Of a stretch of 64,000 nucleotides of DNA, positions 25,767 to 46,648 are shown one piece after another; position 1 is the first letter of the stretch, and the number at the start of each line of letters is the position of its first letter. The position numbers were made by a program, and so were the translations under genes. The notes beneath the pieces are model-generated. The model saw nothing but the letters and a program-made list of their open reading frames with translations. It did no database searches and was not told where the DNA came from. Origin of the DNA: an uncultured Chloroflexia bacterium (GTDB taxonomy: Bacteria > Chloroflexota > Limnocylindria > QHBO01). Location of the stretch: the NCBI GenBank assembly GCA_963811145.1, contig CAWEQC010000004.1:79752-143751 (forward strand). Reading direction: 5' to 3'.

Positions 25767-25793
25767 CTGCCGATGATGCCAGAGCGAGCAGGT

Positions 25794-27912
25794 ATGCTCA
25801 CTCGACCGATGCTCCTGCCTGCCGCCCTCCTGGCCCTCCTCCTGGTGGCGCCGGTCGCGGGGCCCGCGCAGGCGACCGCCATCGCCGCGGTCCCCGACGA
25901 GCCGGGCGTGGTGATCCTGCCCGACGCCGCGATCCTGCAGACCGTGGTGGCCGACGTCGACGCGGACGGACGGCGCGAGGTGGTCCGCCTGGTGCTCGGG
26001 GCGGGCGATGCCGTCCTGGCCGAGGTCTGGGGACTGGATGCAGACGGCTGGCGGCTCCGCGGCGAGCCGGTCGAGGTCGTGCCGCCATCGCGCGTCGGGA
26101 CTGCGCATCGACCGTGTCTACCAGTCGACCCCGGTGCGGCTCCTCGTCCGCCGCGTCGACGGCGTCGAGCGCGTCACCGTCGCCAGCCAGCCACACTTCG
26201 AGGAGATCGACGTCGGGCGAGCCGTGCTGCCTCATCCTCCACGACCTCGCGATCGCGGATGGATCGGCGCTTCGGCGCCCGGTGTCCGGCCCGAGCGACT
26301 TCGCGGACGTCGATCATCGTCATCGACCTCGACGGCGATGGCACCGACGAGCTCCTCTCGACCCAGTCGCTGCCGCCGGCGGGCGACATCGGCTTCCCGA
26401 TCCAGGCGCGCGTCCACCGATGGGAGGACGGCGCGTTCGGTCGCGCCCGCCGAGACGCGGCTGCCGGTCGGATCGGGCGACTCGCCATTCCGGCTCGGTG
26501 ACAGCGACGGTGTCCCGGGCGACGAGGCGGCGATCATCTCCACGCTGGGACCGTCGGGGATCTTCCGAATCCGCCTCGCGCAGGGCGATGCGCTCGAGCT
26601 TGACGCCGGTGGCGTCGTGGCCGACCAGGCCGTCGCCGTGCCGCTCGATGACCGGACGCGGCCTGGCGCTCGTCGGTCCGGTGACCGGACTGATGGTTGC
26701 CACGCTGGCCGGCGGGCGGGGCGGTGTCGGAGCCCATGGCAGCGTCGGTCGTGACGGCGGCCAGGATCGTGGGGACGGTGGCGGTCGAGGAGCCGGACCT
26801 GGCTCGTCGTCCATCAACCGTCGACCGATGCGGTCCACCTGCTCGGCATGCCCGGGCTCTGAGCCGCAGGACGTCTCCATCAGGCGCAGCCCGGCCTCGG
26901 CCGCACTTTCCGGCACGCCCGCTGAGGCCGTACAGCGGCCTGCTGCCGGGGGGTGGGGTCGACGGCGAGCCGGTGGTCGTCCACGCCGGACGGCTCATCC
27001 CGTCGCTCCCAGGTCTCGACGATGGGACGGGCACCTCGCTGATGGCCACCCTCGGCGGCGCCGAGGCGGTCGGCCTGGTCGGCGACGAGCTGATCGTGCT
27101 CCAGCACGGGCCATTCGGGCGGCCGCAGCCCGGCCGTGACGGCGGAGCACTCGTGGTGCCGCCGGTGCTGGACCGGGCGTGGACGAGCGTCGCGCCGCTC
27201 GAGACGACCCTGCAGGCCGAACGATGGTGCCTCGAGCCGCCACTGCGCGGGCTGCTCCGCCTCGACGAACCGGGCAGAATCGCCGTCGGTCCCGGCGGGT
27301 TCGTGGCGGAGGTGGCCGCGCCTCCGGGCTCGCGGGTCGCGATCACCGACTTCGACCCTCGGCGGTTCGGCCGCCCATCGTCGTGCCGGCCGGCGGCCGG
27401 ATCGACGTGCCGTTCGTTCCTCCGACGGACGCGGCCCCGAACCCGCCATACGAGGTCGGCCTGGTGGTCATGACGCCGGCCGGCCATGCCCAGCCTGCCA
27501 GCTGGGAGGTGGAGGTCATGACCGAGCCGCCGCGCGGTCGAGCTGACGGTGCGGACGCCGTTCGGCTCGAGCGCGGTCGAGATCGGCGGGCGGACCGCTC
27601 CGTTCGCCACCGTGCGCGTCGGCGGTTCGCCGGTCGAGGTGACGCCTGCGGGCCGGTTCGTCACGGCGCTCGACATGCCGCCGTGGCCGACCGAGGTGTC
27701 GGTCGAGGTGAGCGACGGGCTCGGCAACGTGGCTCGCCAGACCGTCGAGCGGAATCGGCCTGTTCGACTATCGCGCCCTGCCGTGGGTGCTGATCACGGT
27801 CGCGCTGGTGGCGATGGCCGGCGTCGCCCTCCTGCTCCGCGTGCCGAGGTCGGTCCCGCTTCCGCGCCGCGCCGACGACGACGCCGAGCTCGAGGAGCTC
27901 GAACCGGACTGA
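25794..27912 (+). pseudogene. Paralog of the 20577-22746 DxDGDG membrane-anchored protein, broken by at least 10 frameshifts
   Basis: Signal peptide MLTRPMLLPAALLALLLVAPVAGPAQA, then VADVDADGRREVV and VIDLDGDGTDELL. Later segments (YSGLLPGGGVDGEPVVV..., IVVPAGGRIDVPFVPP..., TVRTPFGSSAVEIGGRTAPFATVRVGGSPVEVTPAGRFVTALDMPPWPTEVSVEVSDGLGN, GLFDYRALPWVLITVALVAMAGVALLLR...ELEELEPD-stop) hop among all three frames. Confidence 0.65.
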
Positions 27913-30842
27913 TCAGCCCTCGCGGCGCCGGCGGGCAAGCCGCTCCGCGAGCGTCTCCGTGGGCGGCGGGACCTCCGGTTCCACGGCCGGTGCACGTGGG
28001 GCGGGCGGAGGCGACGGGCGCGACAGGCGCCGGTGTGGCCGGCCGGGTCCCTGCATCGGACGTGACGGTCGGTGGCGTCGGCGACACTCGCTCCGCGCGA
28101 CGCACGCGTGCGCTCTCGAGCGGCGCGGAGCTCGGCGAGGCCCGGAACGGCCTCCGGTTCCGCGCGGCCCAGCCCGACGCGGCGTGCGGCCCACGCACGC
28201 GCTCGTCGGAGGTCGGCGCGGCTGAGCGCGACGCGACGAACGCCGACGTCGAGCGGCACGAGCAGCGATCGCCAGGAGGAGGAGCCACGGCCAGATCGGT
28301 GTCGGGAAGGCGCTCGCCTCGATGTCGTGAGTCCAGACCGCGGTCGGGGCATCCTCGTCGACCAGCGCGAGCTCGCGGCCACCACCCGCGGCCGCGTAGG
28401 CAGCGAGCGCATCGGCGTCGATGCCGAGCCGTCGGTACTCCTCGGCAGCCGGCGAGACGATCCCGAGCGTGCGGCTTGCCGCATCGGTCCCGCTCTCGTC
28501 CTCGAAGGTCTGGGCCACCCGCACCAGGTAGGCGCCCTGCTGGTCGGCCTTGACCGTCCCGGCGTAGCGGCCGGGCCCCACCTGGTCGAGGAGCGTCTGC
28601 GTCGGTTCGAGGTCTGGCGAGACGAGGCGCAGGACCGTCCGATAGAAGTTCCGCGGCCCGGCCTCGTCGTCGAACGAGGTCACCTCGACGTTGAGCTCGC
28701 CATCCTCGCCGGGACTGAATCGCACGTCGATGCCCTCGGCGTCCTGCGGCGGCAGGGTCCACGCCACGAGCTGGGCGGTCAGGGTGCCGAACTCGGGCGT
28801 CCCGATCCACGGCGCCGCCCATTGCTGCCGCGCGTCGGAGGTCCACGCCACCGCGCGCCCCAATCCGTACTGCCACTGCGCCAGGAGCGGGTCCTCGCGC
28901 GCGGTCAGCAGCGCGACGGTGGCGCTCCCCTTGGCAGTGGTGGCGTTGTAGCCGAGCAGCTGCGGCAGCCGGCCGGCGTCGAGGCCGTCGAGGATCTCGG
29001 ACGACGCCGATGGGATCGGCTGGAAGGTCTCCTCCACGACCTGCTCGCCGGCGGTCCGGATCGTCTCCCGCAGGAAGATGTCGGGGATGGTGGTGGCGTC
29101 CGCCGCTTCGTAATAGCGGCCGCCGGACTCCTCCGCCAGCCTGCGCAGGATCTGCGCCGAGCCGCCGCCGGTGCCGATGGTGGAGAGGGTGATGCCCGCT
29201 GCCTGCATGTCGGCCAGCAGGTCGTCATACGCGCCATGGGTCGACCAGCCGTCGGTGATCAGGATGATGTGTCGCAGCGTTGCCGGGTTGTCGATGAGGT
29301 CGTCGTACGCGGCCTTGAGCCCGGCGTAGATGTTCGTGTTGCCGTCGGCCGGGAAGCCGAGGCCAGCCTGCAGGGCGCCGAAGTCGATCGGCGCCGTGCG
29401 CACCGCCCAGTGGGCGTTCTGGTCGAATGCCACGACGCCGAGCTGATCGGTCGGGGCGAGCGCCTCCGCGGCGCGCAGGATCGCCTCGCGCGCGACGTCG
29501 ACCTTCTCGAATCCCCGCGATCCCGATGGGTTGGCGTTGTCGCGCGAGTCGCCCGTGCAGTGGCAGTCGGCCATGCTTCCCGACTTGTCGACCACCGCGA
29601 CCATCGCCACGTCGGGCGAGCGCTCACGGTCGCGCACCGTCATGTAGACCGGGAGCGTCTCCTCCAGCGGCGTGTCGAGGTAGCCGCCCGCGCCATAGCT
29701 GTCGCGGCCCCCGAGCATGACGAGCCCCTTGCCGAGATCGCGGACGTACACCTGCAGCGATGCCATGGTCGCGTCGCCGAGCGGCGGAGGCACCAACGTT
29801 GTCGAGCACGACCGCGTCGTAGCCGGCGAGGCTGGCGAGCGAGGACGGCACGCCGGTCGACGGCACCACGGTCACCTCCAGGCTCCCCTCCCCGAGCGAG
29901 GTGACGAGGTCGGCGGCGCGCTCCGGGTCATCGGTCGCGACCAGCACCTGCGGCTCGCCGGTGACGAGGACGTAGGCATCGGCGGCGTTGTTCTGGGCGA
30001 AGCGGTCGTCGGTGGGTTCGATCACGGCGCGGAACACGTGGAACCCGGGCTCATCGGCGGTGACCGCGAAGGGGATGGTGGTCACGCCGGGCTCGAGCTC
30101 CAGCTCACGCGTCGCGATCGTTGCCCCATCCGCCAACAGTCGCAGGCTGGCAGTGGTGGTGATGGTTGAGCGCAGGCGCACGACGAGGTCGATCGTCTCG
30201 CCGACCCGAGCGCCCGGCGGCGCATCGATCGCGTCGACCAGCACCTCGGCGGCCGACTCGTCGGCCGGGGTCACGACGTCGAGCCGGATCCCGCGCGCGG
30301 AGGCGGCTGCGATGGCGTCCTCGGCCTCGCCGGAGGTGTCGTTGCCGTCCGACAGCAGCACGATCCGCTGCTGGGTGCCGTTCGGGAAGATCGCCGCCGC
30401 CAACCGCACGGCGGCCGCGACATTCGGTGGCGCCGACCACAGGCTCCGATGCCGGATCCGAGAGCTCGTCGAGCTCGGAGGGGAGGCGGTCGACCAGCGC
30501 GTTGCCCCCGAACACGACGACTCCCGCCGTGTCGCCGTCGGGCATCTCGCGGACGCTGTCACGCGCCCAGGCCACGAGGTCCTCGCGGGTCGCGTCGAGC
30601 ATCGATGCGGACGCGTCCAGCAGGAAGACGACGCTGAGCCGATCGGACGGGAGCGCCAGCCGCGTCCCTGCCAGCGCGAGGACCAGGCACGCGACCAGCG
30701 TCAGCCGGATGACGAGCGACGCGATGCGGCGGCCAGCGGGCAGCGTGCGCGAGGCAGCCAGCCAGCCCGCGACGACGATGGCAACCGCGGGCAGCGCCAG
30801 CCACAGCCAGACCGGGTCGGAGAAGGCGACCGGCACGTTCAT
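27913..30842 (-). pseudogene. BatB-like membrane protein with N-terminal double-TM anchor, two VWA domains and a GATase1-like module; at least 4 frameshifts
   Basis: The ATG at 30842 overlaps the upstream stop (ATGA). MNVPVAFSDPVWLWLALPAVAIVVAG...VVFLLDASASM (VWA 1), ...YDAVVLDNV / MASLQVYVRDLGKGLVMLGG..., VAVVDKSGSM...ILITDGWS (VWA 2), and a C-terminal TM WPWLLLL + PLDVGVRRV. Segments lie in the frames of ORFs 30105, 29624, 27913 and 27768. Confidence 0.75.
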
Positions 30843-32805
30843 CGGGCCTTGCCGCCGAGCGGCTGCGGCCGGCGTCCGAAGGCGCGACCCAGGCTGCGTC
30901 GCGTCGGTCGGTGGAAGAGCAGCCACTCGACGGCCAGCAGCGCCAGCGCGGCCAGCGCCAGCGGCCACCACCACTCGGCGCGGCTCGGCTGCGAGGCTGG
31001 ATCGTCGGCGGCCGTGACGCGCCCCATCTCGATGATCCGCTGGGGGTCGCCCGGCGCGACGTCCGACTCGTCGGGGCTGAACAGGTTGATCGCCGTTTGT
31101 CCGAGCACGGTGCCGTCGAGCTCCGGGATGTCGCTCAGTGCGCGCACCTCGCGCAGGCCGACGAAATCGGCGCCGGGGATGGTCAGGCGCCCGCCGACGA
31201 CCGATACCTCGAGGCCGGTGCTGCGTGGAACCGGGCAGCTCCGGCGCGCCGGTGTTGTCGACGACGACACGCTCGATGCGTGGGTCGACCACCACGCTGA
31301 CCGACTCGCCCAGCCGCATCGAGGAGGGCAGGACGCCCTCCACCGCCGGCAGCAGCATCTCGGTCAGGTTGCTCATCAGGAGCGGGAAGGCGACCTGGAG
31401 CGGCAGGTCCGACTCGCCGAGGTCGAAGCCGATGAGTGCCAGGCGCCGCCCATCGACCTCGCCGACCGCCACCAGCGGGTTGCCGCCCGTCGTCTCGACC
31501 ACGGCGCGCACGCCATCGACCAGCGTCAGCTCCCGCGCGCGACCGATGTGCACCGTCGACAGGTCGACGAAGCGCAGGAGCGGCTCGTCCGGGTTGGTGC
31601 GCTCGATGGCCGGGCTCTCGATCCGATCGCCGACCGTGCCGAACGGCCCGTCCTCGTCGGGGTCGAGGTACAGGGCGGGGACCGTGCGGCGCCTCGTCGG
31701 GCACCACGCCGTCGAACACGAGGAGGCCGTAGGGCGTGCCCGCCTCAGCCGCCTCGGCCAGTGCATCCTCGTAGCCATCGGCGTCGACCGCGTACAGCTC
31801 GAGGCGGGGGAGCAGCGCAAGCGCGTTCTCGAGGTAGGTGTTGCCGGCGCCGACCAGCAGGGTGCGCGTGACCTCGTCGACGGGAACCACGGCGAAGGCG
31901 CGGTCGTCGGTGATCAGAGCGTCGGATCCGGCGAGACGGGCCTCCACCACGCGGGCGGCGCCTGGCACCGTGCTGACGAGCGCCTCGGAGCGCTGGCCCG
32001 GCGGGATCGTCAGCTCGCGCGCATCCACCAGCTCGCCATCGGCGTAGACCTCCAGCCGTCGCGTCGCCTCGATCGATGACGGGTTCGACACGGCGACGAA
32101 CAGGTCGAGCTGCGCGCCGCCGGAGCGGCGCAATGCGGAGAGTGCCGCGATGGCCTGGTTCGCATCGGTCGAGCCGATGCGCTCGACCACGACCGGCGCT
32201 CCGACGCCGACGTCCGGCAGCTCATCGCCGGCCGCATCGGTCACGACCACCACGGTCGAGTCGGCGTCCCGCTGGGCGAGCGCCGACGAGAGGGCGAAGG
32301 CATCGGTCAGGTCGCCCGGCAGCTGGGTGGCCGTGATCCCGTCGATCGCCTCGAGCGCCGCATCGGTGTCGTCCGTCTCGCTGACCAGCACATCGGCGGT
32401 GTCCGCGGCGGCCACCACCGTGATCCGACCGCCGACCGGCAGCCGTTCCACCACGTCGCGCGCCCGCTCCCGGGCGAGCGCCATGCGGTCCTCCTCCTCG
32501 GTGCGGGTCGCCATCGAGGCGCTGGTGTCGACGATGAGGACGACGTTGGCAGCCAGGTCGGACTCGACCGCGGTGAAGGGGCGGGCGGCCGCGGCGACCA
32601 CGATGGCGGCGATCAGCAGCTGCACCAGCAGCAGCCAGCTGAAGCGCAGCCGCTGCCAGGGGGCGTTGGCCTCGACGTCCCGGATGAGCTGCTGCCACAG
32701 GAACGTCGAGCCGACCGGGAGGTCGCGGCGCCGCAGGCGCAGCATGTAGAAGGCCACGATGATCGGCAGCGCGATCAGCCCGATGAGGGCAAGCGGCGCG
32801 ATCAT
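30839..32805 (-). pseudogene. BatA-like protein (N-terminal double-TM aerotolerance domain + VWA); 2 frameshifts
   Basis: The ATG at 32805 overlaps the DUF58 stop (ATGA). MIAPLALIGLIALPIIVAFYMLRLRRRDLPVGSTFLW..., VLIVDTSASM...VVVVTDA. The frame changes near 31685 and near 31235. The C-terminal TM is WWWPLALAALALLAVEWLLF. Confidence 0.75.
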
Positions 32806-33692
32806 TCGACCACTCGGCGACGGCGGAGGACGTCGAAGAGGAGGTCGGACAGGTCGAGGTCCGACGGCACCTGGACGTACGCGCCGCCGCGCCGGCTGAC
32901 GAATGCGGCGATCTCCGCCTGCCACTCGGCGAGGCGCGTTCGGTATCGTTCGACCAGGTCGTCGTCTCCGGAGACCTCGACGGCGTGCCCGGTCTCGCTG
33001 TCGACCAGGCGCGCGTCCGGCGGCACCTCGGGCTCGAGCTCGTCGGGTGCCAGGAGATGGAGGACCGAGAGCTGGCAGCGCGTGCCGGCCAGGTCGCGGA
33101 GCGCGTCGAGATAGCCCGGATCCATGAGGTCGCTGATCAGGACCATCGGTCCGCGCCCACGGATGCGACCCGCATAGGCGCGCGCTGCCGCGGCAAGCCC
33201 GGTCAGGCGCTCGGTGCGCGGTTCCGACAGGAACCGGAACAGCTCCAGCGCTCGCTGCTTGCCGCGCATCGGTCGCAGCCCGCTCGACGCCCCATCCCCG
33301 AGGAACGCGACGCTGACGCGGTCCATGCTCGCCAGTCCGAGGTAGCCGAGCGCCGCGGCCGCCCGGCGCGCGGCGTCGAGCTTGTTCGGCTCGCCGTAGT
33401 CCATCGAACGCGAGGCGTCGACGAGCAGGTGGACGGTGACGTCCTCCTCTTCGACGAACAGCTTGACGAAGAGCTTCTCGAGCCGCGCGTAGGCATTCCA
33501 ATCGAGCTGCCGCAGGTCGTCACCGACGGTGTAGTTGCGGTAGTCGGCGAACTCGACGCTCTGTCCTCGACGCAGGCTGCGGCGCTCGCCCTTCATCCTG
33601 CCGGCGGTCATGCGGCGCGATGCAAGCTCGAGCTGCTCGAGGCGGCGAAGGAACGTCTCGTCGAACAGGACGGCTCGCTCGCCGGTGGTCAC
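32802..33692 (-). CDS. DUF58 domain protein (MoxR-associated, VWA-like fold)
   Basis: GTG start 6 nt after the MoxR stop. FADYRNYTVGDDLRQLDWNAYARLEKLFVKLFVEEED is the DUF58 hallmark. Confidence 0.85.
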   Translation of the reverse strand: MTTGERAVLFDETFLRRLEQLELASRRMTAGRMKGERRSLRRGQSVEFADYRNYTVGDDLRQLDWNAYARLEKLFVKLFVEEEDVTVHLLVDASRSMDYGEPNKLDAARRAAAALGYLGLASMDRVSVAFLGDGASSGLRPMRGKQRALELFRFLSEPRTERLTGLAAAARAYAGRIRGRGPMVLISDLMDPGYLDALRDLAGTRCQLSVLHLLAPDELEPEVPPDARLVDSETGHAVEVSGDDDLVERYRTRLAEWQAEIAAFVSRRGGAYVQVPSDLDLSDLLFDVLRRRRVVE

Positions 33693-33698
33693 GCGGAG

Positions 33699-34679
<981 letters not shown>

Positions 34680-34733
34680 CTCGGTGCTCGGCGGCGGTGG
34701 TGGACGGGATCGGTTCAGTCATGGCGTGGTCGC

Positions 34734-36559
34734 TCACTCCGTGGGTTCGAGGCGGGAGAAGTAGTCGCGGACGAAGTCCTTCAGCGTGATCGGCACCTGC
34801 TGGCGGTCGAGTGCCGACTGTGCGTAGTCGTTGAAGAGGTCGAAGACCGATGCGTACGGCACCACGCTCTCATTGTCGAAACCGACGCCCGACCCGCTGC
34901 CGGTCTGGTCGGTCCCACCGTTGCCGCCGCTGCCGGCGATGAAGTCGGGGTCGCCGGGCCGTCCAAATCGTTCGAAGTCGGACAGCACATTGCCCTCATC
35001 GTCGGTTTCAGAGCCCTGGTTGCCGGATGTCGGCCCGTTGAAGCCGCCCGTGCGCAGGCCGCCGCCCGGGATGCGGCGCACGGTCGTGCCGCCACCGCCG
35101 CCCGGCTGCCCGCCTCCCCGGCTGGCTCCCGGGCTGGCTCCCCGGTTGGCTCCCGGGTTGGCTCCCCGGCTGCCCGCCGGGCTGCCCTCCCGGTTGACCG
35201 GAGGAACCTGGCTGACCGGAAGAGCCGGGCTGACCGGAAGAGCCGGGCTGGCCCGAGAGCGCCGGGCTGGCCCGAGGCGCCCGGCTGGCCAGATGACCCT
35301 GCGCCGGGGTTGCCGGACGAACCCGGCTGACCCGACGCACCGGGCTGCCCGGTCGATGCGCCAGTCGGCTGGCCGGCGCGGGCCACCTGGCGGGCGCCCT
35401 CCTGCAGGGCGGACTGTGCCTGTGACAGGTCGCGCTGCAGCTGCCGATCGCGGGCTGCCTCTCGGAATGCGTCGGCGGCGCGCTCGAGCGCCTCGGCAGC
35501 GGCCTGGCGGTCCGCCTCGCTCCCGGAGCGCGCTGCCGCGTCGAGTGCATCGGCGGCTTCGGCCAGCGCCCGTGCCGCGGCTGGCTGCGATGCCGCCCCG
35601 GCCTGCGCCGCCTGGCGCAGATCGTCCGCGCGCGCCGCGGCTTCCTCGGCAGCCAGCTCATCGGTCCGGTCCGCGAGCTCCTCGAGGTCCCGGGCCGCCT
35701 GCTCAGGCTCGCCGTCGGGGTTGGCCTCCTCGTCGCCGGTCGCCGCCTGGGACGCCGCCCGCGCGAGCTGGGAGAGCGCGGCGTCGCGCTCGGACGCCTG
35801 GGGATCGGTCATGCGCGAGAGCTGCTCCTGGACCGATCCGATCCGAGCCAGCGTTGCCTCACGATCATCTCCCTGCTCGCGCAGCTGGCGCGCGAGCTCG
35901 CGCAGCTGGCGCTCGAGCTCCTCACGGCGGGGATCCGGATTCTCGACGTTCTCCTCGCCGACCTCCTCGGCCACGTCCTCGACCCGTTCGGCAACCCGCT
36001 CGGCCGCCTCGCGGGCCGCGCGACGCTGCTGAAGCAGGTCGTCCTGCGGGTTCGGCCACGCCACCAGCAGCAGCGTCAGGGCGATTCCCACCCCGGCCAC
36101 GATGAGCGGCCGCCGAGCAAGCCGCGGCCGGAATGCCAGCCGCAGGTCCGCCTCGTTGAGATGAGCGCGGGCGTCGGCCAGCTGCCGCGCCTCCAGGACA
36201 TCCCCGGCCTCGTGGCCGGCCAGCTCGAGAGCCGTTCCGAGACGCTGCCGCATGCCGAGCTCCTCGTCTGCGCGGCGCGCGGCTTCGACGAGCGACGGAC
36301 GACGGCGAGCGACGTCGATGAGCCACCCGGCCAGCGCCAGCGCGCCGATCGCGATCTGGATCCAGGGTGCCGCCTCGATCGGGAGGGCGCGGGCGAGCAG
36401 CTGGACGGCCGCGATCGCCAGCACCGCACCTGCTGCAACCAGCAGTCCGGATCGCACGGCGCGGCGCCACCAGAGGCGCCGTCGAAGCCTGCGCAGGCGT
36501 CGCAGTGCGTCGCGGCCGAGGCCTGCCTCGACCGCATCGGCAACCAGCCGGTCCGTCAC
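34734..36559 (-). pseudogene. Membrane-anchored coiled-coil protein (DUF4175-like) with Gly/Gln/Pro/Ser low-complexity linker; 2 frameshifts inside the repeat
   Basis: The GTG start overlaps the permease stop (GTGA). There are three N-terminal TM helices and ~300 aa of E/A/R-rich coiled coil. The linker is GQPGASGQPGSS...(GSQP)n, and the conserved tail VPYASVFDLFNDYAQSALDRQQVPITLKDFVRDYFSRLEP is in the frame of ORF 34734. Shifts lie near 35262 and near 35116. Confidence 0.65.
35100..35300. repeat. Coding micro/minisatellite (12- and 18-nt units) encoding GSQP / GQPGSS repeats
   Basis: ggctgaccggaagagccg occurs twice, with degenerate neighbouring copies (GQPGSS, GQPGAS). gggagccaaccc / gggagccagccg-type 12-mers (read on the minus strand) occur 4 times. 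Confidence 0.6.
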
Positions 36560-37746
36560 GAGTCCGCTTCCCGCAGCTCATCGATCGCGGGCGCGCCCTC
36601 GAGGGCCGCGACATCGCGTGCGCCGGTGCTGTTGGAGTCGCGCCGCGCCCGGCGGCGGCGGAACGCGCCACGCATGCCGGCCGGCACCACAAGGCGCATC
36701 GACGCGACCGTCAGCAGTGCCGCAAGGACGAGGAAGCTGATCGTCACGCGCGGCCACCAGTAGCCGGAGGTGCCGCTCACCTCCACGATTGGCTGGCCGT
36801 CGGGACCGAACCCGCCAAGGTCACCGCAGTTGGGACCGTCGCAGGCGGGTACCAGCACGTTCAGATCCTGTCCGCTGCTGGCGAGGTCCTGGCCGAACAG
36901 CTCGTACAACGCGCGCGTGAACCGGGTCGGCCCGCCGGCCTCGACCGACGACACGATGTCGAGCATTCCGACCATCGGGTTCAGGTAGCGAAGCTGTTCG
37001 GGCGCGCGCTGTCGATCGCCGATCGGGAACCCCGTCTCGTCGGTGCTCGCGACCTGGTCCCAGAAGGCGAACACCATGGCCGTTCCGAGGGTCAGCGCGA
37101 GGACGGTCCCGTAGGCGACCACGGTGGCGGCTTGAGTGCGGCGCATCAGGGCGGAGGCGAAGATGCCGATGGCGCCGAAGCCGATCGCCACGGCCAGCAG
37201 AAGGATCTGCTGGCGAACGATGTCATCCACCGACGCCCCGCCGTACATGAGCACGATCGCGCAGATCGGGATGGCCGCCACGATCATGAGGATCACGAAG
37301 GCGAGCGCGGTCACCAGCTTGCCGATGATGATGGCTCCGGGGCGCAGCGGGGTGGTGATCAGGAGGTCGAGCGTCTGCTTCTCGCGTTCCAGGCTGATCT
37401 GGCCTGCTGTGAACGCCGGAGCGATCATCGAGACCAGGACCACCTGGAACACCGAGAGCACCGAGAAGATCGACTGGCCGATGAGGGCCGATGCGTTGGC
37501 CTGGCCGACGCCGAACCCGAAGCCGCCCTGCTGGCCGGCCGTTGCGCGAGCGACCGGCGCCACCACGACGTATGCCCCGTAGGTGATCAGCGCCAGGACC
37601 GCCAGGTACAGCGTGAGCACCATGAACGCACGCCGGCCGCGCATCCTGGAGCGAAGCTCCTTGACCATGATGGTGGAGACCGACGAGGCAAACTCGCGCA
37701 CGGCCGATTGTCGCGTACCACTGACGCTCGTGGTCGAAGCGGTCAT
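36556..37746 (-). CDS. ABC-2 type transporter permease
   Basis: The ATG at 37746 overlaps the ATPase stop (ATGA). MVKELRSRMRGRRAFMVLTLYLAVLAL... with 6 predicted TM helices and a large extracytoplasmic insert before the last helix. Confidence 0.8.
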   Translation of the reverse strand: MTASTTSVSGTRQSAVREFASSVSTIMVKELRSRMRGRRAFMVLTLYLAVLALITYGAYVVVAPVARATAGQQGGFGFGVGQANASALIGQSIFSVLSVFQVVLVSMIAPAFTAGQISLEREKQTLDLLITTPLRPGAIIIGKLVTALAFVILMIVAAIPICAIVLMYGGASVDDIVRQQILLLAVAIGFGAIGIFASALMRRTQAATVVAYGTVLALTLGTAMVFAFWDQVASTDETGFPIGDRQRAPEQLRYLNPMVGMLDIVSSVEAGGPTRFTRALYELFGQDLASSGQDLNVLVPACDGPNCGDLGGFGPDGQPIVEVSGTSGYWWPRVTISFLVLAALLTVASMRLVVPAGMRGAFRRRRARRDSNSTGARDVAALEGAPAIDELREADS

Positions 37747-38726
37747 GTCGTTGGCTCCTCGTCGGCCTGTCCGGTGACCCGGAGGAAGATCTCCTCGAGG
37801 TCGCTCGTCGCCTGGCTGAACCCGACCACGCGATGGCCGGCCTCCACCATTGCTCGGAGGAGGTCCGCCTGCGCGTCCGGCGGTCCGTCGAAGGTCGCCT
37901 CGATGCGCACAGCCCCGTCGGCGTTGCTCGTTCCCCCGAGGACGTCGGCAACGCGCGAGTCGGTTTCGAGCCACTCGCGCGCCGCTGCCGCCGAGGACTC
38001 GTCGCCGATGAGGTCGATCCGCAGCACGGCGCTGGCGCGGAGCGAGCGCTCGATGTCGCCGATCGTTCCCGCGCGGAGGAGCCGCCCGTGATCGATGATC
38101 GCGACGCCGGTGCACATCTCGGCGAGCTCGGGGAGGATGTGGCTGCTCACCAGGATCGTCTTGCCCATGGTCCGCAGCTCACGCAGGATCTCGCGCATCT
38201 CGACCCGCGCCCGGGGGTCGAGGCCTGAGGCGGGCTCGTCGAGGATGAGCAGTGCCGGATCGTGGACGAGCGTGTGCGCCAGGCAGAGACGCTGCCGCAT
38301 CCCGCGCGACATGCTCTCGACGTAGCTGTCGCGCCGATCGGTCAGCGCCACGATCTCCAGCAGCTCACCGATCATCGTCGCGCGACGATTGGCGGGCACG
38401 CCGTAGCAGCGCGCAAAAAAGTCGAGATACTCCCAGACCTTCAGGTCGTCGTAGACGCCGTAGAAGTCGGGCATGTAGCCGATGCGACGTCGGACCTCGA
38501 TCGGGTCGGCGTCGACCGGGATGCCGGTCACATACGCCTCGCCGGCCGTTGGCGCCAGCAGCGTGGCGAGGATCTTCATCGTGGTCGTCTTCCCGGCGCC
38601 GTTCGGCCCGACCAGCCCGAAGATCTCGCCGGGACCGACCAGGAGATCGATTCCGGCGACGGCAAGCTCGTCGCCGTATCGCTTGACCAGGCCGCGTGTC
38701 TCGAGGACCGGCGTCGAGGTCATCAT
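37743..38726 (-). CDS. ABC transporter ATP-binding protein (ABC-2 / exporter type)
   Basis: Walker A GPNGAGKTT, signature MSRGMRQRL, Walker B LLILDEPASGLD. The C-terminal ~90-aa extra domain is common in ABC-2 ATPases. Confidence 0.9.
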   Translation of the reverse strand: MMTSTPVLETRGLVKRYGDELAVAGIDLLVGPGEIFGLVGPNGAGKTTTMKILATLLAPTAGEAYVTGIPVDADPIEVRRRIGYMPDFYGVYDDLKVWEYLDFFARCYGVPANRRATMIGELLEIVALTDRRDSYVESMSRGMRQRLCLAHTLVHDPALLILDEPASGLDPRARVEMREILRELRTMGKTILVSSHILPELAEMCTGVAIIDHGRLLRAGTIGDIERSLRASAVLRIDLIGDESSAAAAREWLETDSRVADVLGGTSNADGAVRIEATFDGPPDAQADLLRAMVEAGHRVVGFSQATSDLEEIFLRVTGQADEEPTT

Positions 38727-41155
38727 CCGCCGATCACCCCGGACGCCCGCGCGCTGACGAAGACGGTCTGCTGGCCGAAGTTCGGATCCTGCGCGACGCC
38801 GGTCAGGCGCACCTCGATTCGTCCCGTGCCGCTGATTGCCGTGCTCGGATCAGCGATCTCGAACGTGGTCTGGCGGCTGATGTCGCCGAGGAGGCTCCAC
38901 TCACCGGTCGACGGGTCGCGCACCTCGAGCGTGAAGCCGAGCGGCCACATCCCTGGCATCTGGCCCTGATTGCCGAGCACCATCGACGGATCGGGGCCGA
39001 CCAGGATCTCCAGCTCGGAGACCGCCATGTCGGTCGCATCGAGCGGAAGGGCGATGCTATAGGTCGCCGACCCGTCACCGAGCAGCACGGTGCCCGGCCC
39101 CATCGAGCTCGCGTCACCCTCCGTCGACAGCACGGTCGCTCCCATCTGTGCCGGACCGATCTCCGCCTCGCCCGGCCCGAGGCTCGGCCTGACGCTGACG
39201 ACCTCGACCGTGTGTTCGTAGCGGCGCGCGACGAGGCCATCGACCGTGATCGGGGTGGGGCCTGGTTCGTCGCTCCAGCCGATCACGTACGGGCCGCGCG
39301 CGGTCACCGAGCTCAGCTCGACGCCCGGCATGAAGCCGCCGAATCCGACCAGCGCGTCGATCACACCACGCCTGATGAGGATGCGGCGCTGCGCCTCGTC
39401 GACGGTGTCGAATCCGCCGAATCCGTACACCTGGTCGGAGGCGGACGATCCGTTGAAGTTGGTCGTCCCGAGCGTGAACTCGGCGCTCTCGCCGGGGCCC
39501 AGCTCCGGGATGATCATGTCGCCGCCGCCGCCGCTGACGTACGCGACGTCCTCGATGGGCAGCGTGCCCTGGTTCGTCACGGTGCCGGTCAGCACGCCAT
39601 CCTCGCTGCGCCACGCGACGCTGAGGGTGGGTTCGCGGTCCACGATCGCATCGGCCCGAACGGCCTCGAAGCCGAAGACGCCGATCGACAGCCCGCGCAG
39701 GTGAGCGGGATCGCCCTGCTCGATCACGACGTCCGCGGCGCTGGTCTGCGTGCCGTCGAAGCCGATCGGTCGCAGCTTCGCCATGAGCGCGTCGTCCTCC
39801 ACGGTCATGTCGTAGGTGGCGCGATCGGGCGAGAAGATGCCCGCATAGCTCTCGATCGTCGCTGAACTGCCCGCGCCGCTCGACCGGATGAGCGAGATCT
39901 GGTTGACGATCACCTCGGTGCCCTTCATCGAGTTGCCGATGCCGAATGAGCACGCCGTGAACACCGCCACCAGCAGGGGGGCGGTGACCCAGGCCAGCTC
40001 GCGGCGATCCAGTCGCCGCAGAACCAGGTAGCTGATCGGACCGATGAGGAGGATGTAGGCAACGATGACGACCAGCAGCAGCTCGGCCGGCGGAACCTCC
40101 AGCGAGGGCAGGTTGCTGAGGGCGGTGCCCATGGCGTTCTGCGACTCCTCAATGGGGAATCGGCCGAAGAACTGCTCGAACACGCCGTTGGTCGGCAGGA
40201 GGCGAGCCCAGAGCCGGGGTGAGCCCTCCCAGCCCCGATAGGGTTCGGTCGCCAGATCGGTTCCGACCAGGATGACCCGACCGGCTCCCATCGGGCGCAT
40301 CGATGCCAGGATCGTGCCGTCAGCGGCCCGAACCAACGCGCGGGAATCGTTCCGCAGCGTGCCCGTCGACGTGGTCGCCAGCTCCTCGGCCGCGGCGCCG
40401 GCGCCGGACCATGACGCGAGCGATGCCTGTGGCACGGCGTCCACCGCGGCAAGGTCCTCGAGCGGCAGCAGCTCGCTGAATGCGGCGGTCCGCGCCTGCC
40501 AGTCGGGCCCGCCCACGATGATCAGCTGGCCGCCGTCGGCGACCCATCGCTCGATGCTGCGGCGCTGCGCCTCGGTGAGCCCCGAGCTGTCGTCCGCCCA
40601 CACGATGGCCGACAGCCCGTCGAGCGGCTCGGAGCGCTCGGGCAGGTCGGCGACGGTGAGGGAGAGTGGCGCCGGGAGCCCCACGTCGGCGCCCGAGCTC
40701 AGCTGTGGTCGCAGCGCGCCCGCTCCGTCACCCACGATGGCGAACTGGCTGGACGCCTGCTCGAGGACGCGGGTCTCGACGACGGCCTGGACCGTTCCGT
40801 TCGGCTCCTGGAAGCGAACGGTCACCTGCCGCTGGAACGCTTCCGGCTGGAGGTAGAGCATGACGACCTTGTGCGCGCCGGCGGGCATCTCGACGAAGCG
40901 CTGGACCGCGCCCGCCTCGGTGGTCGCGGCGAGGGTCCCCTCGGTCGGCTCGCCCTCGTTGACCAGCGTGACCGAGATGCCCATCCAGCCACCGACCGCA
41001 TAGCGCCCGCCCACCAGCCCACGCGCCTCGATCTTGATCGAGCTGGCTGCATTGACCGGGAGGGCTGGCAGGAGCAGCGCGACCAGGAGAAGCGCAACGC
41101 CGGCGATGGGCATGGCGAGCCGGCTGGCTCCTGAACGGGCGGTCCGGTTGATCAT
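38723..41155 (-). CDS. Large (810 aa) membrane protein with beta-sandwich, GATase1-like and C-terminal beta-rich domains
   Basis: ATG at 41155 preceded by gagagga. Signal/anchor MPIAGVALLLVALLLPALPVNA. LSAIVWADDSSGLTEAQRRSIERWVADGGQLIIVGG (DUF4159/ThuA-like amidotransferase-fold motif). Central TM pair ELLLVVIVAYILLIGPISYLVL / WVTAPLLVAVFTACSFGIG. Confidence 0.8.
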   Translation of the reverse strand: MINRTARSGASRLAMPIAGVALLLVALLLPALPVNAASSIKIEARGLVGGRYAVGGWMGISVTLVNEGEPTEGTLAATTEAGAVQRFVEMPAGAHKVVMLYLQPEAFQRQVTVRFQEPNGTVQAVVETRVLEQASSQFAIVGDGAGALRPQLSSGADVGLPAPLSLTVADLPERSEPLDGLSAIVWADDSSGLTEAQRRSIERWVADGGQLIIVGGPDWQARTAAFSELLPLEDLAAVDAVPQASLASWSGAGAAAEELATTSTGTLRNDSRALVRAADGTILASMRPMGAGRVILVGTDLATEPYRGWEGSPRLWARLLPTNGVFEQFFGRFPIEESQNAMGTALSNLPSLEVPPAELLLVVIVAYILLIGPISYLVLRRLDRRELAWVTAPLLVAVFTACSFGIGNSMKGTEVIVNQISLIRSSGAGSSATIESYAGIFSPDRATYDMTVEDDALMAKLRPIGFDGTQTSAADVVIEQGDPAHLRGLSIGVFGFEAVRADAIVDREPTLSVAWRSEDGVLTGTVTNQGTLPIEDVAYVSGGGGDMIIPELGPGESAEFTLGTTNFNGSSASDQVYGFGGFDTVDEAQRRILIRRGVIDALVGFGGFMPGVELSSVTARGPYVIGWSDEPGPTPITVDGLVARRYEHTVEVVSVRPSLGPGEAEIGPAQMGATVLSTEGDASSMGPGTVLLGDGSATYSIALPLDATDMAVSELEILVGPDPSMVLGNQGQMPGMWPLGFTLEVRDPSTGEWSLLGDISRQTTFEIADPSTAISGTGRIEVRLTGVAQDPNFGQQTVFVSARASGVIGG

Positions 41156-41284
41156 GATCCTCTCGGTGCGGTCGGGTCGCCGTGGCGCCGGCCACCGGTA
41201 GACGCGCCGTCCGCCGCCCGAGTTGCATGCCCTCCGTGGGTGCGCCCGAGTGTACGGGAGGCAGAGCGGCCGATGTAGAGTCGG

Positions 41285-43195
41285 ATGCTGCGCATGGAAG
41301 CCTCCGACTCCGACGGCCGCAACGAGCTCAAGAGCCACCTTGAGAACCAGATGCGCGCCCAGGAGCGTCAGCTCGTCTGGGTGCGCCTCGGGATGGTGCT
41401 GGTCGCTGCCCTCTTCCTGCTCATCTTCGAGCCGAGCCTGGCATCACGTCCGATCCTGTTCGCGCTGCTCGGGGTGGTGGCGCTCTCCATCCTCGCCATC
41501 CCGTGGCTGCTGACCAGGTTCCCGGCCCGGGAGGTCGGCATCGTCAGCACGGCGCTCGACATGGCTGCCGTCACGGTGGCCGTCTACTTCGCCGGCGACA
41601 CGATCGACGCGCACCTCTTCTACGGCCTCGTCATCCTTGGCACCGCGCTCCGCTTCGGGCTCGGCGCATCGGTTTGGTCCTCGCTGGTGATGAGCGGCCT
41701 GTACGTGGCGGTCGTGCTGATCGGTCCTCCCGACGAGGCCGTGCGCTCGCAGCTGCCGGTGCGCGTCGCCTACCTCGTCGGCATCGGCGTGGTTGCCGGC
41801 CTCTTCAGCCGCGTGGTCATCCAGCGAGCCATGGACAACGCGCGCCTCCAGCAGCGGCTGGCGGAGGACGAGCGCGATCGCGAGCGGGTCGTGGAGCGGG
41901 AGCTGCTCAGCCGGCTCGGGCGCGACTTCGCCGCCTCGCTCGACCGCGAGGCAACCAGTCGGGCAATCGCCGACGGCGCCGCGACGGTGCTCGGCGACGC
42001 GACGCTGGTCCTGATGATCGAGGACGCCGAGCGGCGCATGCTGCCCGTCGCCGCCGGCGGGACGGACGGGGACCTGGCCGCGCGCTGGGAGGCACACGTC
42101 GCCGAACGGAGGCCACGCGTGGGGGAGGGGATCATCGGTGGGGTGGCCGCCACGGTGGCTTCCGTCGACGGAAATCGCGAGCTGGCCGCCGCAGGCGACC
42201 CGGACGGGCTGGCTGCGCTCGACCTCGGATGGATCCTGGCGGTGCCGATTCTGGCCGGCGGGCGCCTGCTCGGCGTGCTGGCCAGCGCCGGTCGCGACGG
42301 GACCGCACCGAGCGAGCAGATCCGGCGAATGGCCGAAGCGGTCGCGGAGCGGGCCGGGCCGGCGCTTCAGAACGCGCAGCTCTGGTCGGACCTGCAGGAG
42401 CGGATGAGCCGCGAGCAGGCGGCGCAACGGATCAAGGACGACTTCCTGTCGATCGTGAGCCACGAGCTGCGAACCCCGCTCACCAGCATCCAGGGCTACT
42501 CGCAGCTGCTCGAGGGCCGGCTTCGGACGGACCGCGACGGCGAGAGCAAGGAGATGGCCCACCTTCGCGTCATCCGCTCGCAGGTCGGACGCATGCGGCG
42601 CCTGGTTGACGACCTCCTCGACGTGAGCCGCATCGACCGGCGCGGCGGAGTGAGCATCGAGACGGTTGACTTCGACCTTGCCGCGCAGGTGCGCGAGGCG
42701 GTGGCGCGCGTGCGGCGCGAGAACCGCGATCGCGAGATCGAGGTCACCGCTCCCGAGGCGCTCGGCGTGCACGCCGACCAGGATCGGATCGACCAGGTCC
42801 TGAGCAACCTGCTCGAGAACGCGGTCAAGTACTCGCCTGACGGCGGACCGATCGCCGTCACCGTCGAGCGCCGAGGCGGTGAGGTCGAGGTGCGGGTTGC
42901 CGACGCCGGCGTCGGGATCCCGGCGGAGCATCGCGAGAACGTCTTCGAACGCTTCTACCAGGCTGATGACGACGCGGGCCGGCGCAGGTTCGGCGGGCTG
43001 GGACTGGGGCTCTACATCAGCCGCGCCATCATCGACGCCCACGGTGGTCGCATCTGGGCCGCCGCCAACGCGGATGCCGGACACGGGTCGATCTTCGGCT
43101 TCCGGATCCCGCGGGTGGCCATGCCGCTCACCCCGGTCAGCGTCGCACCGACCGGCGAGCCACCACCGTTCGTGGTCCGCAACCGCGACGGCTGA
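41285..43195 (+). CDS. Sensor histidine kinase (polytopic N-terminus + GAF-like + HisKA + HATPase_c)
   Basis: 636 aa. Five to six N-terminal TM helices, H-box FLSIVSHELRTPL, N-box NLLENAVKYSP, G-boxes DAGVGIP and GGLGLGLYISRAI. Confidence 0.9.
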   Translation: MLRMEASDSDGRNELKSHLENQMRAQERQLVWVRLGMVLVAALFLLIFEPSLASRPILFALLGVVALSILAIPWLLTRFPAREVGIVSTALDMAAVTVAVYFAGDTIDAHLFYGLVILGTALRFGLGASVWSSLVMSGLYVAVVLIGPPDEAVRSQLPVRVAYLVGIGVVAGLFSRVVIQRAMDNARLQQRLAEDERDRERVVERELLSRLGRDFAASLDREATSRAIADGAATVLGDATLVLMIEDAERRMLPVAAGGTDGDLAARWEAHVAERRPRVGEGIIGGVAATVASVDGNRELAAAGDPDGLAALDLGWILAVPILAGGRLLGVLASAGRDGTAPSEQIRRMAEAVAERAGPALQNAQLWSDLQERMSREQAAQRIKDDFLSIVSHELRTPLTSIQGYSQLLEGRLRTDRDGESKEMAHLRVIRSQVGRMRRLVDDLLDVSRIDRRGGVSIETVDFDLAAQVREAVARVRRENRDREIEVTAPEALGVHADQDRIDQVLSNLLENAVKYSPDGGPIAVTVERRGGEVEVRVADAGVGIPAEHRENVFERFYQADDDAGRRRFGGLGLGLYISRAIIDAHGGRIWAAANADAGHGSIFGFRIPRVAMPLTPVSVAPTGEPPPFVVRNRDG

Positions 43196-44262
43196 TGCGC
43201 CAACGCCTCGCCGAGCTCGCGGCGGCTCATGGGCTCGAGCTGGTCGGCGTCACCGACGCGGGGCCGCTGCCCGACGCGCGGGAACGAATGGAGGAGAGCG
43301 TCGCCGCAGGGCGGATGGCACGCATGGACTGGATGGGTGGTGACCGGCCTCGGCAGGCGACCGATCCCGCGTCGGTCGATCCGACGGCGCGTTCGGTCAT
43401 CGTGGTCGCCGCTCCCTACGTCGGGGCCGGACGAGCCGCCTGGGACCCGCGACCCGACGCGCTGCGCGAGGCGCTGGCACCGGTCCTGGCGGGCACGCCG
43501 GCCGAGCCGGCCGGACGCATCGCGCGCTACGCATTGGGCACTGACTATCACGTCGCCCTGCGGGAGCGGCTCGAGTCGCTGGCCGCGGACCTTCGTCGCG
43601 AGGGGATGGCCGCCGGCGACGTGGCCTACGTCGATGACCGCCCGCTCGCGGAACGAGCGTTGGCCGCCCGCGCCGGGATGGGCTGGATCGGCAAGAACGC
43701 GAACCTGCTCACACACGCGCGCGAAGGGTCATGGGTGTTCCTCGGTGCGCTCCTGACCTCGGCCGACCTGCCGGCGGACGAGCCGATCCGCACGACGTGC
43801 GGCTCCTGCACGCGCTGCCTCGACGGCTGCCCGACGGGTGCCATCGTGGCGCCCCACACCATCGACGCGCGGCGCTGCATCAGCTATCTGACGATCGAGC
43901 ATCCCGGCGTGCTCGACGCATGGGAGGCCAACGCGATCGGCGGCTGGGTCTTCGGTTGCGATGTCTGCCAGGAGGTCTGCCCGGTCAACGCCGATGCCGA
44001 TGACAGCGGCCCGCTGCTGGTGCCGCTCCTGCCGCTGATCGAGTGGCTCCTGCCGCTCGGCGGTCGGGCGTTCGCCAGGGCGGTGGGCGCATCGGCGCTG
44101 ACCCGGGCGGGTCGCCATCGCCTGCTGCGGAATGCCATTGCGGCGCTCGGAAACGCAGGCGAGGTGTCACGTGAGGGCATCGAGCTGCTCGAGCGCGCGC
44201 GTGCGGACGCGCGGCCCGAGGTCCGCGATCAGGCCGCGCGCGTCCTCGCATCGGTTCGCTGA
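43195..44262 (+). CDS. queG: Epoxyqueuosine reductase
   Basis: ARYA.G.DYH, GWIGKN, 4Fe-4S motifs CGSCTRCLDGCPTGA and CDVCQEVCP, and C-terminal HEAT-like repeats. The ATG overlaps the kinase stop (TGATG). Confidence 0.9.
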   Translation: MRQRLAELAAAHGLELVGVTDAGPLPDARERMEESVAAGRMARMDWMGGDRPRQATDPASVDPTARSVIVVAAPYVGAGRAAWDPRPDALREALAPVLAGTPAEPAGRIARYALGTDYHVALRERLESLAADLRREGMAAGDVAYVDDRPLAERALAARAGMGWIGKNANLLTHAREGSWVFLGALLTSADLPADEPIRTTCGSCTRCLDGCPTGAIVAPHTIDARRCISYLTIEHPGVLDAWEANAIGGWVFGCDVCQEVCPVNADADDSGPLLVPLLPLIEWLLPLGGRAFARAVGASALTRAGRHRLLRNAIAALGNAGEVSREGIELLERARADARPEVRDQAARVLASVR

Positions 44263-44284
44263 CTGCCGTCTATCCTTTCGCACG

Positions 44285-46571: not shown

Positions 46572-46648
46572 GCCGCATTCGTCTAGAGGCCTAGGACACC
46601 GCCCTCTCAAGGCGGAGATCACCGGTTCGAATCCGGTATGCGGTACCA
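46572..46648 (+). tRNA. tRNA-Glu (anticodon CUC), CCA encoded
   Basis: Manual cloverleaf: GCCGCAT-TC-GTCT AGAGGCCTAGGAC-A-CCGCC CTCTCAA GGCGG-AGATC-ACCGG TTCGAAT CCGGT-ATGCGGT-A-CCA. It parallels E. coli tRNA-Glu arm by arm. G1-U72 is a wobble pair. Confidence 0.9.
46629..46648 (+). repeat. Direct repeat, left copy (3' end of tRNA-Glu; att-like)
   Basis: gaatccggtatgcggtacca is repeated exactly at 48831-48850. Confidence 0.8.

Follow-up and report, generated by a model that had tools for sequence, protein, structure and literature searches.

What is an ATP-binding cassette (ABC) exporter doing in a gene cluster that otherwise recalls the Bacteroides aerotolerance (Bat) operon? The question is raised by eight minus-strand genes, here G1 to G8, that occupy positions 27913–41155 of a 64,000-nucleotide stretch of contig CAWEQC010000004.1 from an uncultured Chloroflexia bacterium (assembly GCA_963811145.1; 'the window' below). 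As judged from sequence, the eight genes form a single operon that is conserved across Chloroflexota, and we lean slightly towards the reading that they specify one composite machine of the cell envelope that combines two older modules.

Organization and conservation of the operon

The first gene of the cluster, G1 (38723–41155), encodes a protein of 810 amino acids in a reading frame that is intact in the window and whose ATG is accompanied by an AGGA Shine–Dalgarno sequence. It is followed by G2, an ABC ATPase of the DrrA/NodI/GldA/NosF/ABCA type (327 aa, 37743–38726), G3, an ABC-2 permease (396 aa, 36556–37746), G4, a membrane-anchored coiled-coil protein (about 607 aa after correction, reconstructed from its reading frames, 34734–36559), G5, an AAA+ ATPase of the MRP type of MoxR (340 aa corrected, 33699–34722), G6, a DUF58 protein (296 aa, 32802–33692), G7, a protein with a BatA N-terminal domain and a VWA domain (654 aa corrected, 30839–32805) and finally G8, a double-VWA protein (974 aa corrected, 27913–30842; identified by Pfam on the joined sequence and by an intact orthologue, L092). 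The genes are coupled by ATGA overlaps at 38723–26, 37743–46, 32802–05 and 30839–42 and a GTGA overlap at 36556–59, all on the minus strand, while G5 and G6 are separated by 6 nt (33693–98). The initial annotation had given the same gene coordinates, orientation, order, overlaps and 6-nt gap, which our check of the sequence bore out in full, and its domain calls (ABC, ABC-2, MoxR, DUF58, BatA/VWA and double VWA) were upheld by Pfam. It had also described a 54-nt gap (34680–34733) ahead of a MoxR start at 34679. That start is an internal ATG: the true one, the ATG at 34722, is masked by a base inserted near 34693, which therefore creates the apparent gap. Once this base is removed, the spacing between G4 and G5 is 11 nt, as in the orthologous locus L001, and all of the junctions are 4-nt overlaps or gaps of at most 11 nt.

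The depth of conservation was assessed by scanning genomes, one per species, with a G1 profile built from a 14-sequence alignment. The best 80 of 418 matches, all of Chloroflexota type, were retained, and gene presence and order at each locus were read from tblastn searches with the eight window proteins. The order is colinear in 80/80 of these species-representative loci, including those in which G1 is only 30–36% identical to that of the window. In the close group no gene was missing from a locus long enough to include it (21/21 to 41/41), and the distant group (36 loci, with G1 30–36% identical) gave 28/29 to 35/35 on the same basis. G1, the ABC genes and G4 adjoin MoxR–DUF58 in each locus that is long enough, bar one distant locus with no MoxR match (29/30). 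This arrangement is far beyond chance. Two relatives, with 86% and 61% identity, have all eight genes intact, with the order and overlaps seen in the window, and also share the divergent kinase gene, QueG and DUF1015 found upstream of the operon.

Conservation extends to Anaerolineae, where G1 is about 25% identical: a Caldilineaceae metagenome-assembled genome (MAG; L087) and a further MAG (L088) carry all eight genes, and a complete Anaerolineales genome (L086, CP070811.1) keeps G1, the ABC ATPase, the ABC-2 permease, a 526-aa gene of G4 size with no Pfam match, MoxR and DUF58. Synteny of G1 and the ABC genes with MoxR–DUF58 had been set beforehand as the test of the operon, and the 80 colinear loci, together with L086–L088, pass it. 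Hundreds of close homologues of G1 come from MAGs labelled Candidatus Limnocylindria or Chloroflexota, and a library-wide search returned 6437 clusters at E ≤ 0.001, 778 of them below 1e-30; many clusters of the family are about 800 aa long, with 25–35% identity.

Some loci differ locally. In L086, DUF58 is directly followed by major facilitator superfamily and sugar ABC genes. In L088, an extra gene of 215 aa with no Pfam match (16798–17445) stands between the G4-like gene and MoxR. A 298-nt insertion separates the DUF58 and BatA-like genes in L001 (17996–18296), which is the 86%-identical relative, and also in L002; within it, the near-palindrome CCGATnTATCGG recurs five or six times at spacings of 48 or 64 nt. 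Neither the window nor L004 has this insertion, which may represent a small repeat element or an array of operators.

Integrity of the copy in the window

As written in the window, G4 (1826 nt), G7 (1967 nt) and G8 (2930 nt) have lengths that are not divisible by 3, and each spans two or three reading frames. Alignment of the window against five independent relatives located ten single-base insertions in the operon: near 35257 and 35115 in G4, near 34693 in G5, near 31685 and 31222 in G7 and near 30424, 29784, 28266, 28108 and 28028 in G8. Both of the G4 frameshifts fall inside a tandem-repeat stretch (35114–35287), and G1, G2, G3 and G6 are free of insertions. The corrected proteins are 607 (G4), 340 (G5), 654 (G7, from 1967 − 2 nt) and 974 aa (G8) in length, compared with 614, 340, 654 and 977–981 aa for the intact orthologues, and are orthologue-like throughout; the N-terminus of G5, for instance, becomes MTEPIPSTT...TEMITPERF, matching L001.

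Ten frame-breaking insertions in four of the eight genes might be taken to mean that the cluster is decaying in this genome, which we consider hardly credible. Every change is a +1, with no stop mutations and no frame-breaking deletions seen in the affected genes relative to the five relatives, and the segments between the frameshifts retain 78–98% identity to the orthologues. Moreover, the same comparison revealed dozens of single-base insertions across 24900–35260 of the window, plus two at 44928 and 45269, and again no frame-breaking deletions. They are densest at 24900–27750 (one per 50–300 bp), and the same kind of +1 change, far denser there, breaks unrelated neighbours, namely a convergent FG-GAP gene, an AMP-binding gene and DUF1015. 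The same broken gene calls are found on a long-read-style contig from a relative. Because the neighbours carry the same type of insertion and the orthologues are intact, the insertions are almost certainly assembly errors rather than signs of decay, and their pattern looks like that of an unpolished long-read assembly with a local low-coverage patch.

G1 and the ABC unit

G1 begins with a signal/anchor helix (residues 13–31) and a β-sandwich, continues with a domain of the class I glutamine amidotransferase (GATase1)/GIFT type (approximately 175–340) and a transmembrane hairpin (357–410), and ends with about 400 residues of β-sandwiches (AlphaFold model with pLDDT 81.9 and pTM 0.81). The cytoplasmic loop of the hairpin, RRLDRRELAW, is the most conserved stretch of the protein. 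The initial annotation had noticed amidotransferase-fold motifs in G1 and G8 and had proposed a fold search with a model of the 810-aa protein; both proteins do contain the fold. G8 has a GATase1_like Pfam match above the cut-off, which covers the C-terminal part of the domain (about 614–677). G1 scores 29.5 bits against DUF4350 (cut-off 30.4) and also matches DUF7408, and many of its orthologues have precomputed PF14258 or PF24157 matches. When the α/β domain of the G1 model was submitted to Foldseek, it matched the GATase domain of ADC synthase, the trimerization domains of GH42/GH164 and the N-terminal GIFT domain of IFT52 (PDB entry 5fmr; probability 1.0, target TM-score 0.48). Alignment of 43 homologues showed neither an invariant Cys nor an invariant His, so that the G1 domain is non-catalytic and not an amidotransferase; the Cys–His–Glu catalytic triad is missing, and the position expected for the nucleophile is occupied by GG (LIIVGG). 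G1 has no NCBIfam match, and neither ABC_transp_aux nor the GldG model (TIGR03521) matches it.

The two following genes have the features of a type-V, ABC-2 transporter, namely an ABC_tran ATPase and a six-helix ABC-2 permease joined by an ATGA overlap. G2 reaches 96.3 bits against ABC_tran, and its best NCBIfam models are DrrA (247.2 bits) and then GldA (TIGR03522; 215.2 bits for a cut-off of 402.6), both below their cut-offs. The closest solved chains are the nucleotide-binding domains of ABCA proteins and NosF (1.8e-41). G3 matches ABC2_membrane_2 (75.8 bits, cut-off 27.2), and hydropathy predicts six transmembrane helices, the fifth and sixth of which are separated by an outside loop of about 100 aa. 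The only meaningful NCBIfam match of G3 is GldF (TIGR03518; 34.8 bits, 1.6e-8, cut-off 288.5). A role in defence was also considered: PADLOC gave no specific defence model for any component, with only generic ABC-ATPase similarity for G2, and we ranked this reading low.

The G4 stalk protein

G4 has a basic cytoplasmic N-terminus and two or three transmembrane helices, the last of which ends with WPNPQD. The part predicted to lie outside comprises a coiled coil of about 230 aa, a variable linker made of Gly/Gln/Pro/Ser repeats and, at the C-terminus, about 110 conserved residues. The linker (GxQP/GSSGQP) is encoded by tandem 12-nt and 18-nt repeats, which Tandem Repeats Finder places at 35114–35287 on the minus strand. 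The protein is conserved across Chloroflexota and matches no Pfam family (E up to 10), no NCBIfam model and no PADLOC model. A suspected resemblance to DUF4175/TIGR02302 was dropped, as no match supported it. A profile search with the C-terminal region returned only short Chloroflexota fragments. The model of this region is mostly disordered with two terminal helices, and the tail may fold only on binding a partner.

The G4 C-terminal region is very often called as a separate protein of 98–130 aa (for example P0439, P0405 and P0386), also on contigs of several hundred kilobases. On L124, a contig from a relative that is 82–86% identical to the window, the gene call breaks within G4, probably because of the Gly/Gln repeat linker. 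Such split calls would hide the G4 family from automated annotation.

MoxR, DUF58 and the VWA proteins

G5 is a clear MoxR ATPase (AAA_3, 212.4 bits with a cut-off of 27; AAA_lid_2, 67 bits with a cut-off of 22.7), and the gene for a VWA-type cofactor, DUF58, lies 6 nt downstream, as is typical of the MRP type. G6 (DUF58, 115.9 bits) has no transmembrane segment and carries the motif DASRS, which resembles a metal-ion-dependent adhesion site (MIDAS; DxSxS at residue 92); it is predicted to be the cytoplasmic VWA-type partner of MoxR. G7 combines a BatA domain (45.5 bits, cut-off 25.9) with a VWA_2 domain (53.6 bits): two N-terminal transmembrane helices surround a basic loop and are followed by an outward VWA domain (DTSAS), about 400 further residues, a transmembrane helix and a basic tail at the C-terminus. 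G8 likewise has two N-terminal transmembrane helices, followed by a first VWA domain and a GATase1-like domain; a last transmembrane helix near the C-terminus then leaves a basic tail of about 115 aa in the cytoplasm. The second VWA domain of the protein (413–589) appears to be inserted between the two halves of the GATase1-like domain. Paralogy between the GATase-like domains of G1 and of G7/G8 is argued from the Pfam and fold results and not from hhalign, in which G1 gave weak colinear matches to G7 and G8 (P = 0.006–0.04).

The topology of these proteins was predicted from hydropathy and the positive-inside rule. By this prediction, MoxR and DUF58 lack membrane segments, all three VWA domains of G7 and G8, each with a DxSxS motif, are placed outside, and strongly basic loops and tails are placed inside. 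The experimental topology of the BatA-like protein BB0173 agrees with this prediction (PMC5700661). The initial annotation had envisaged MoxR remodelling VWA/MIDAS proteins at the surface, which is at odds with the predicted topology: with MoxR and DUF58 in the cytoplasm and the VWA domains facing outwards, MoxR cannot act directly on the MIDAS domains of G7 and G8. Of the membrane proteins, only the short basic loops and tails are within its reach, and the VWA partner on its own side of the membrane is DUF58.

Two modules in one operon

Two examples of full-length G1 homologues outside Chloroflexota, found by tblastn of plasmid records, show that part of the operon exists by itself. In Brevibacillus laterosporus (L122; NZ_CP011076.1, 1219611–1245110), an extracytoplasmic function (ECF) sigma factor, a β-propeller protein, a G1 homologue of 767 aa, an ABC ATPase and an ABC-2 permease are encoded with overlapping junctions, and MoxR is absent from the locus; the arrangement suggests a G1–ABC triad under ECF control in Bacillota. 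The second example, L123 (NZ_CP061968.1), has a G1-like (DUF4350) gene, ABC and ABC2 genes and a G4-like protein, in this order, and again MoxR is absent. The G4-like protein shares with G4 an RRP...LG...TA motif, has a helix that ends with LLPNP and continues as a coiled coil. The L123 record is a 27-kb unannotated entry named 'Klebsiella pneumoniae plasmid unnamed3' with 52–62% G+C, which also codes NuoF-like, GGDEF-HD and YjeF genes; it does not resemble plasmid DNA of enterobacteria and could be a contig of contaminant origin.

Given the MoxR-free versions in Brevibacillus and L123, the Chloroflexota operon is a stable fusion of two modules: module A, with G1, the ABC ATPase and the ABC-2 permease, with or without G4, and module B, with MoxR, DUF58 and the BatA-like VWA proteins. 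The ABC part, which had at first been seen as an extension of a Bat cluster, is thus a self-standing module. The boundary between the two, at G4/G5, is the sole junction among G1–G5 that is a gap and not an overlap. Since the hairpin-loop motif RRLDRRELAW of G1 is retained in both MoxR-free versions, this cytoplasmic loop more likely serves the ABC module than MoxR.

Proposed function and alternatives

What, then, might the eight proteins do together? Gene content and order, tight coupling, deep conservation, the folds of the domains and the independence of module A elsewhere are the observations on which the idea of a composite envelope machine is built. In such a machine, the ABC unit formed by G2 and G3 would work with G1 as an outward accessory protein bearing a GIFT domain like those of GldG and IFT52, and G4 would form a membrane-anchored extracellular coiled-coil 'stalk'. 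In the cytoplasm, MoxR would work with DUF58 as its soluble VWA-type adaptor, while the triple-spanning G7 and G8 would between them expose a GATase1-like domain and three VWA domains of the MIDAS type to the exterior. Two ATPases in the cytoplasm would thereby drive processes that take place on the outer side of the membrane. The ABC unit would either export a substrate or pass conformational work on to G1, by analogy with NosDFY; MoxR–DUF58 would assemble, insert or recycle G7 and G8, and perhaps also G1 and G4, gripping the conserved basic cytoplasmic loops and tails and not the VWA domains. Outside the cell, the G4 stalk and the MIDAS and GIFT-like domains might then bind a ligand in the wall, the surface (S-) layer or the matrix. 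The biological role is likely to be in envelope integrity or surface attachment, not in aerotolerance.

Several points weigh against this reading. The evidence on the Chloroflexota copies consists of genes and predictions, and the topology in particular is predicted solely from hydropathy and the positive-inside rule. In the window as written, half of the genes (G4, G5, G7 and G8) are broken. G3 has no solved relative by sequence, a substrate cannot be named, and the conserved C-terminus of G4 is modelled with low confidence (pLDDT 47). G7 and G8 are missing at the L086 locus, in one Anaerolineales genome. Finally, each module works alone elsewhere, and their adjacency could reflect co-regulation rather than a physical complex.

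This last point leads to the view that two unrelated systems simply share a transcript, an ABC-2 exporter with its accessories (G1–G4) and a Bat-like MoxR–DUF58–VWA unit (G5–G8), without any coupling. Module A does occur without MoxR in Brevibacillus and L123, MoxR–DUF58–VWA units without ABC genes are widespread (PMC5700661, PMC3495828, PMC8191103), and the only gap among the G1–G5 junctions falls exactly between the two. Yet that gap measures only 11 nt, and adjacency and colinearity persist in 80/80 loci while G1 falls to 30% identity, and recur in Anaerolineae, where L086 still keeps MoxR–DUF58 with module A although it lacks the VWA genes. In addition, DUF4350-type proteins are independently tied to MoxR in archaea and mycobacteria. 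Uncoupled systems are, on balance, unlikely.

Two more specific identities can be weighed against the same data. The GIFT (GldG/IFT52-like) domain of G1, the rank of GldA as the second-best NCBIfam model for G2 and of GldF as the sole meaningful one for G3, and the HHpred link of DUF4350 to GldG (PMC5898192) all recall a GldAFG-type gliding or surface-protein secretion apparatus, which in Chloroflexota would serve surface motility or the export of adhesins. The three Gld models, however, score far under their cut-offs or miss altogether, there is no further gld or type IX secretion system (T9SS) gene in the cluster, and Brevibacillus also carries the G1–ABC triad. T9SS is moreover an outer-membrane system, and Limnocylindria are not known to glide; we regard this identity as improbable. 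Very improbable is that the genes are a Bat-type oxidative-stress operon. MoxR, DUF58 and a protein with a BatA N-terminal domain and a VWA domain are indeed all found above the Pfam cut-offs, but the BatC, BatD and BatE (TPR/BatD) families are absent from the eight proteins and from their neighbours. BatA and BatB have about 330 aa, so that G7 and G8 are two to three times their size, with extra domains. The function of the Bat-type region has itself been described as undetermined (PMC5700661).

A more elaborate form of the composite envelope machine can be imagined, which we put forward as doubtful: a previously unrecognized two-ATPase machine of Chloroflexota that would build or tension a surface scaffold including the G4 stalk, with the ABC-2 unit and G1 performing mechanical work outside and MoxR–DUF58 acting inside on the tails of the VWA/MIDAS proteins.

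Neighbouring genes

The operon is flanked upstream by a divergent gene on the plus strand (41285–43195) for a membrane histidine kinase. The initial annotation had called this kinase an orphan, in agreement with its Pfam architecture (GAF–HisKA–HATPase_c) and with the absence of a response regulator beside it. The 129-nt region between this gene and G1 (41156–41284) is the only place with room for an operon promoter. No sigma-70-like or terminator-like site was found across 27400–41600, in a scan that is uninformative at the G+C content of the window (about 70%). Across the 80 loci, the kinase adjoins the cluster in many of those with G1 at least 47% identical (within L001–L004 and L006–L049) and in none of the distant ones.

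The end of the kinase gene coincides with the start of QueG (43195), which is followed by DUF1015 and an α/β hydrolase gene (43195–45624 of the window), an order that is kept in relatives down to 61% G1 identity. An Rfam scan found only a distant tRNA, the tRNA-Glu(CTC) gene at 46572–46648. Downstream of G8, plots of third-position G+C by reading frame gave no strand for 25.4–27.9 kb; the L092 orthologue, in which a convergent gene for an FG-GAP protein follows G8, settled the matter.

Comparison with known systems

The closest published parallel is archaeal. The arCOG01314 (DUF4350)–MoxR–vWA genes have been predicted to encode a secretion or membrane-remodelling complex, and the same study used HHpred to connect DUF4350 with GldG (Makarova, Galperin & Koonin, 2015; PMC5898192). 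There, a membrane-anchored extracellular flavodoxin/GldG-like DUF4350 protein is encoded beside a COG0714 MoxR ATPase and a vWA protein, and the components are mostly predicted to be membrane-bound or extracellular. The neighbourhood of a COG0714 ATPase and vWA proteins is also seen here, with G5 and the G7 and G8 genes, whose VWA domains are predicted to face outwards. The archaeal neighbourhood, however, has no ABC transporter, no G4-like stalk and no triple-spanning VWA protein with a BatA N-terminal domain, whereas the operon has all three. A single transmembrane helix at the C-terminus anchors the archaeal DUF4350 proteins, whereas G1 has its hairpin (357–410) in mid-protein and 400 aa beyond it. 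Conversely, the archaeal set includes Ig-like/S-layer proteins, none of which are encoded in the Chloroflexota operon. In mycobacteria, Rv3691–Rv3693 appear in a table of PMC8191103 as DUF4350, MoxR and DUF58, consecutively numbered and co-regulated; the wider Rv3691–Rv3695 region (DUF4350, MoxR2, DUF58 and membrane proteins) differs in having no ABC transporter, no BatA-like VWA protein and other membrane proteins.

With the Bat operons (B. fragilis Bat, Borrelia bb0170–bb0176 and Rhizobium RL3499–RL3502), the operon has in common the MRP-type MoxR and DUF58, the inner-membrane BatA N-terminal domain with its two transmembrane helices and the outward VWA/MIDAS domain. In Rhizobium, mutants of an operon of the MoxR/DUF58 type are altered in membrane integrity and in cell morphology, according to the summary in PMC3893208. 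The label 'Bat-like' first given to the cluster therefore holds for MoxR, DUF58 and the BatA N-terminal/VWA part and fails beyond it: the operon has no BatC, BatD or BatE gene, G7 and G8 greatly exceed their Bat counterparts in length and add a GATase1-like and a second VWA domain, and the upstream side is joined to G1, G4 and an ABC-2 transporter.

GldA–GldF–GldG resembles module A in its ABC ATPase, its ABC-2 permease and its large extracytoplasmic accessory with a GIFT/class I GATase-like domain. The likeness stops at the fold, which is shared with the GIFT domain only: the scores lie far under the equivalog cut-offs, the GldG models miss G1, G1 has additional β-sandwich domains and a transmembrane hairpin, and the host is a Chloroflexota bacterium with the other gld genes absent. 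NosDFY, an ABC-2 complex that drives a periplasmic partner, as seen in structures from 2022 (PDB entry 7o0y and others), is similar in that a large protein outside the membrane accompanies the ABC-2 unit. The solved bacterial chains closest to G2 include NosF, and ABC2_membrane_2, which G3 matches, is the Pfam family of NosY. G1 is, on the other hand, unrelated to the β-helix protein NosD and there is no nos context, so that mechanotransmission is an analogy only.

Significance

The linkage of DUF4350, MoxR and vWA is already known in archaea (PMC5898192) and in mycobacteria (PMC8191103). Fusion of a MoxR–DUF58–VWA module with an ABC-2 exporter, which the initial annotation had thought not to be a described system, does appear to be new: a literature search on MoxR/DUF58 with ABC, on DUF4350, on GldG with MoxR and on Chloroflexi with Bat found no description of it. 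Were the modules merely co-transcribed, the finding would shrink to a lineage-specific gene arrangement. If the two-ATPase scaffold machine is real, it would provide the first gene-level link of ABC-coupled GIFT-domain (GldG/IFT52-type) proteins with MoxR–VWA systems, and this link would help to explain why DUF4350 travels with MoxR in archaea and actinobacteria.

The operon also supplies a defined set of eight proteins and defines two uncurated families, the G1 family of about 800 aa (6437 clusters) and the G4 stalk protein. Two gene sets that have gone unexplained for decades, the operons of MRP-type MoxR, DUF58 and BatA-like VWA proteins and the GldG/DUF4350 GIFT accessories of ABC-2 transporters, are here locked together in one operon phylum-wide. 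This offers the hypothesis that MoxR systems of this operon type act in the service of envelope complexes in which a GIFT-domain protein is driven by an ABC unit.

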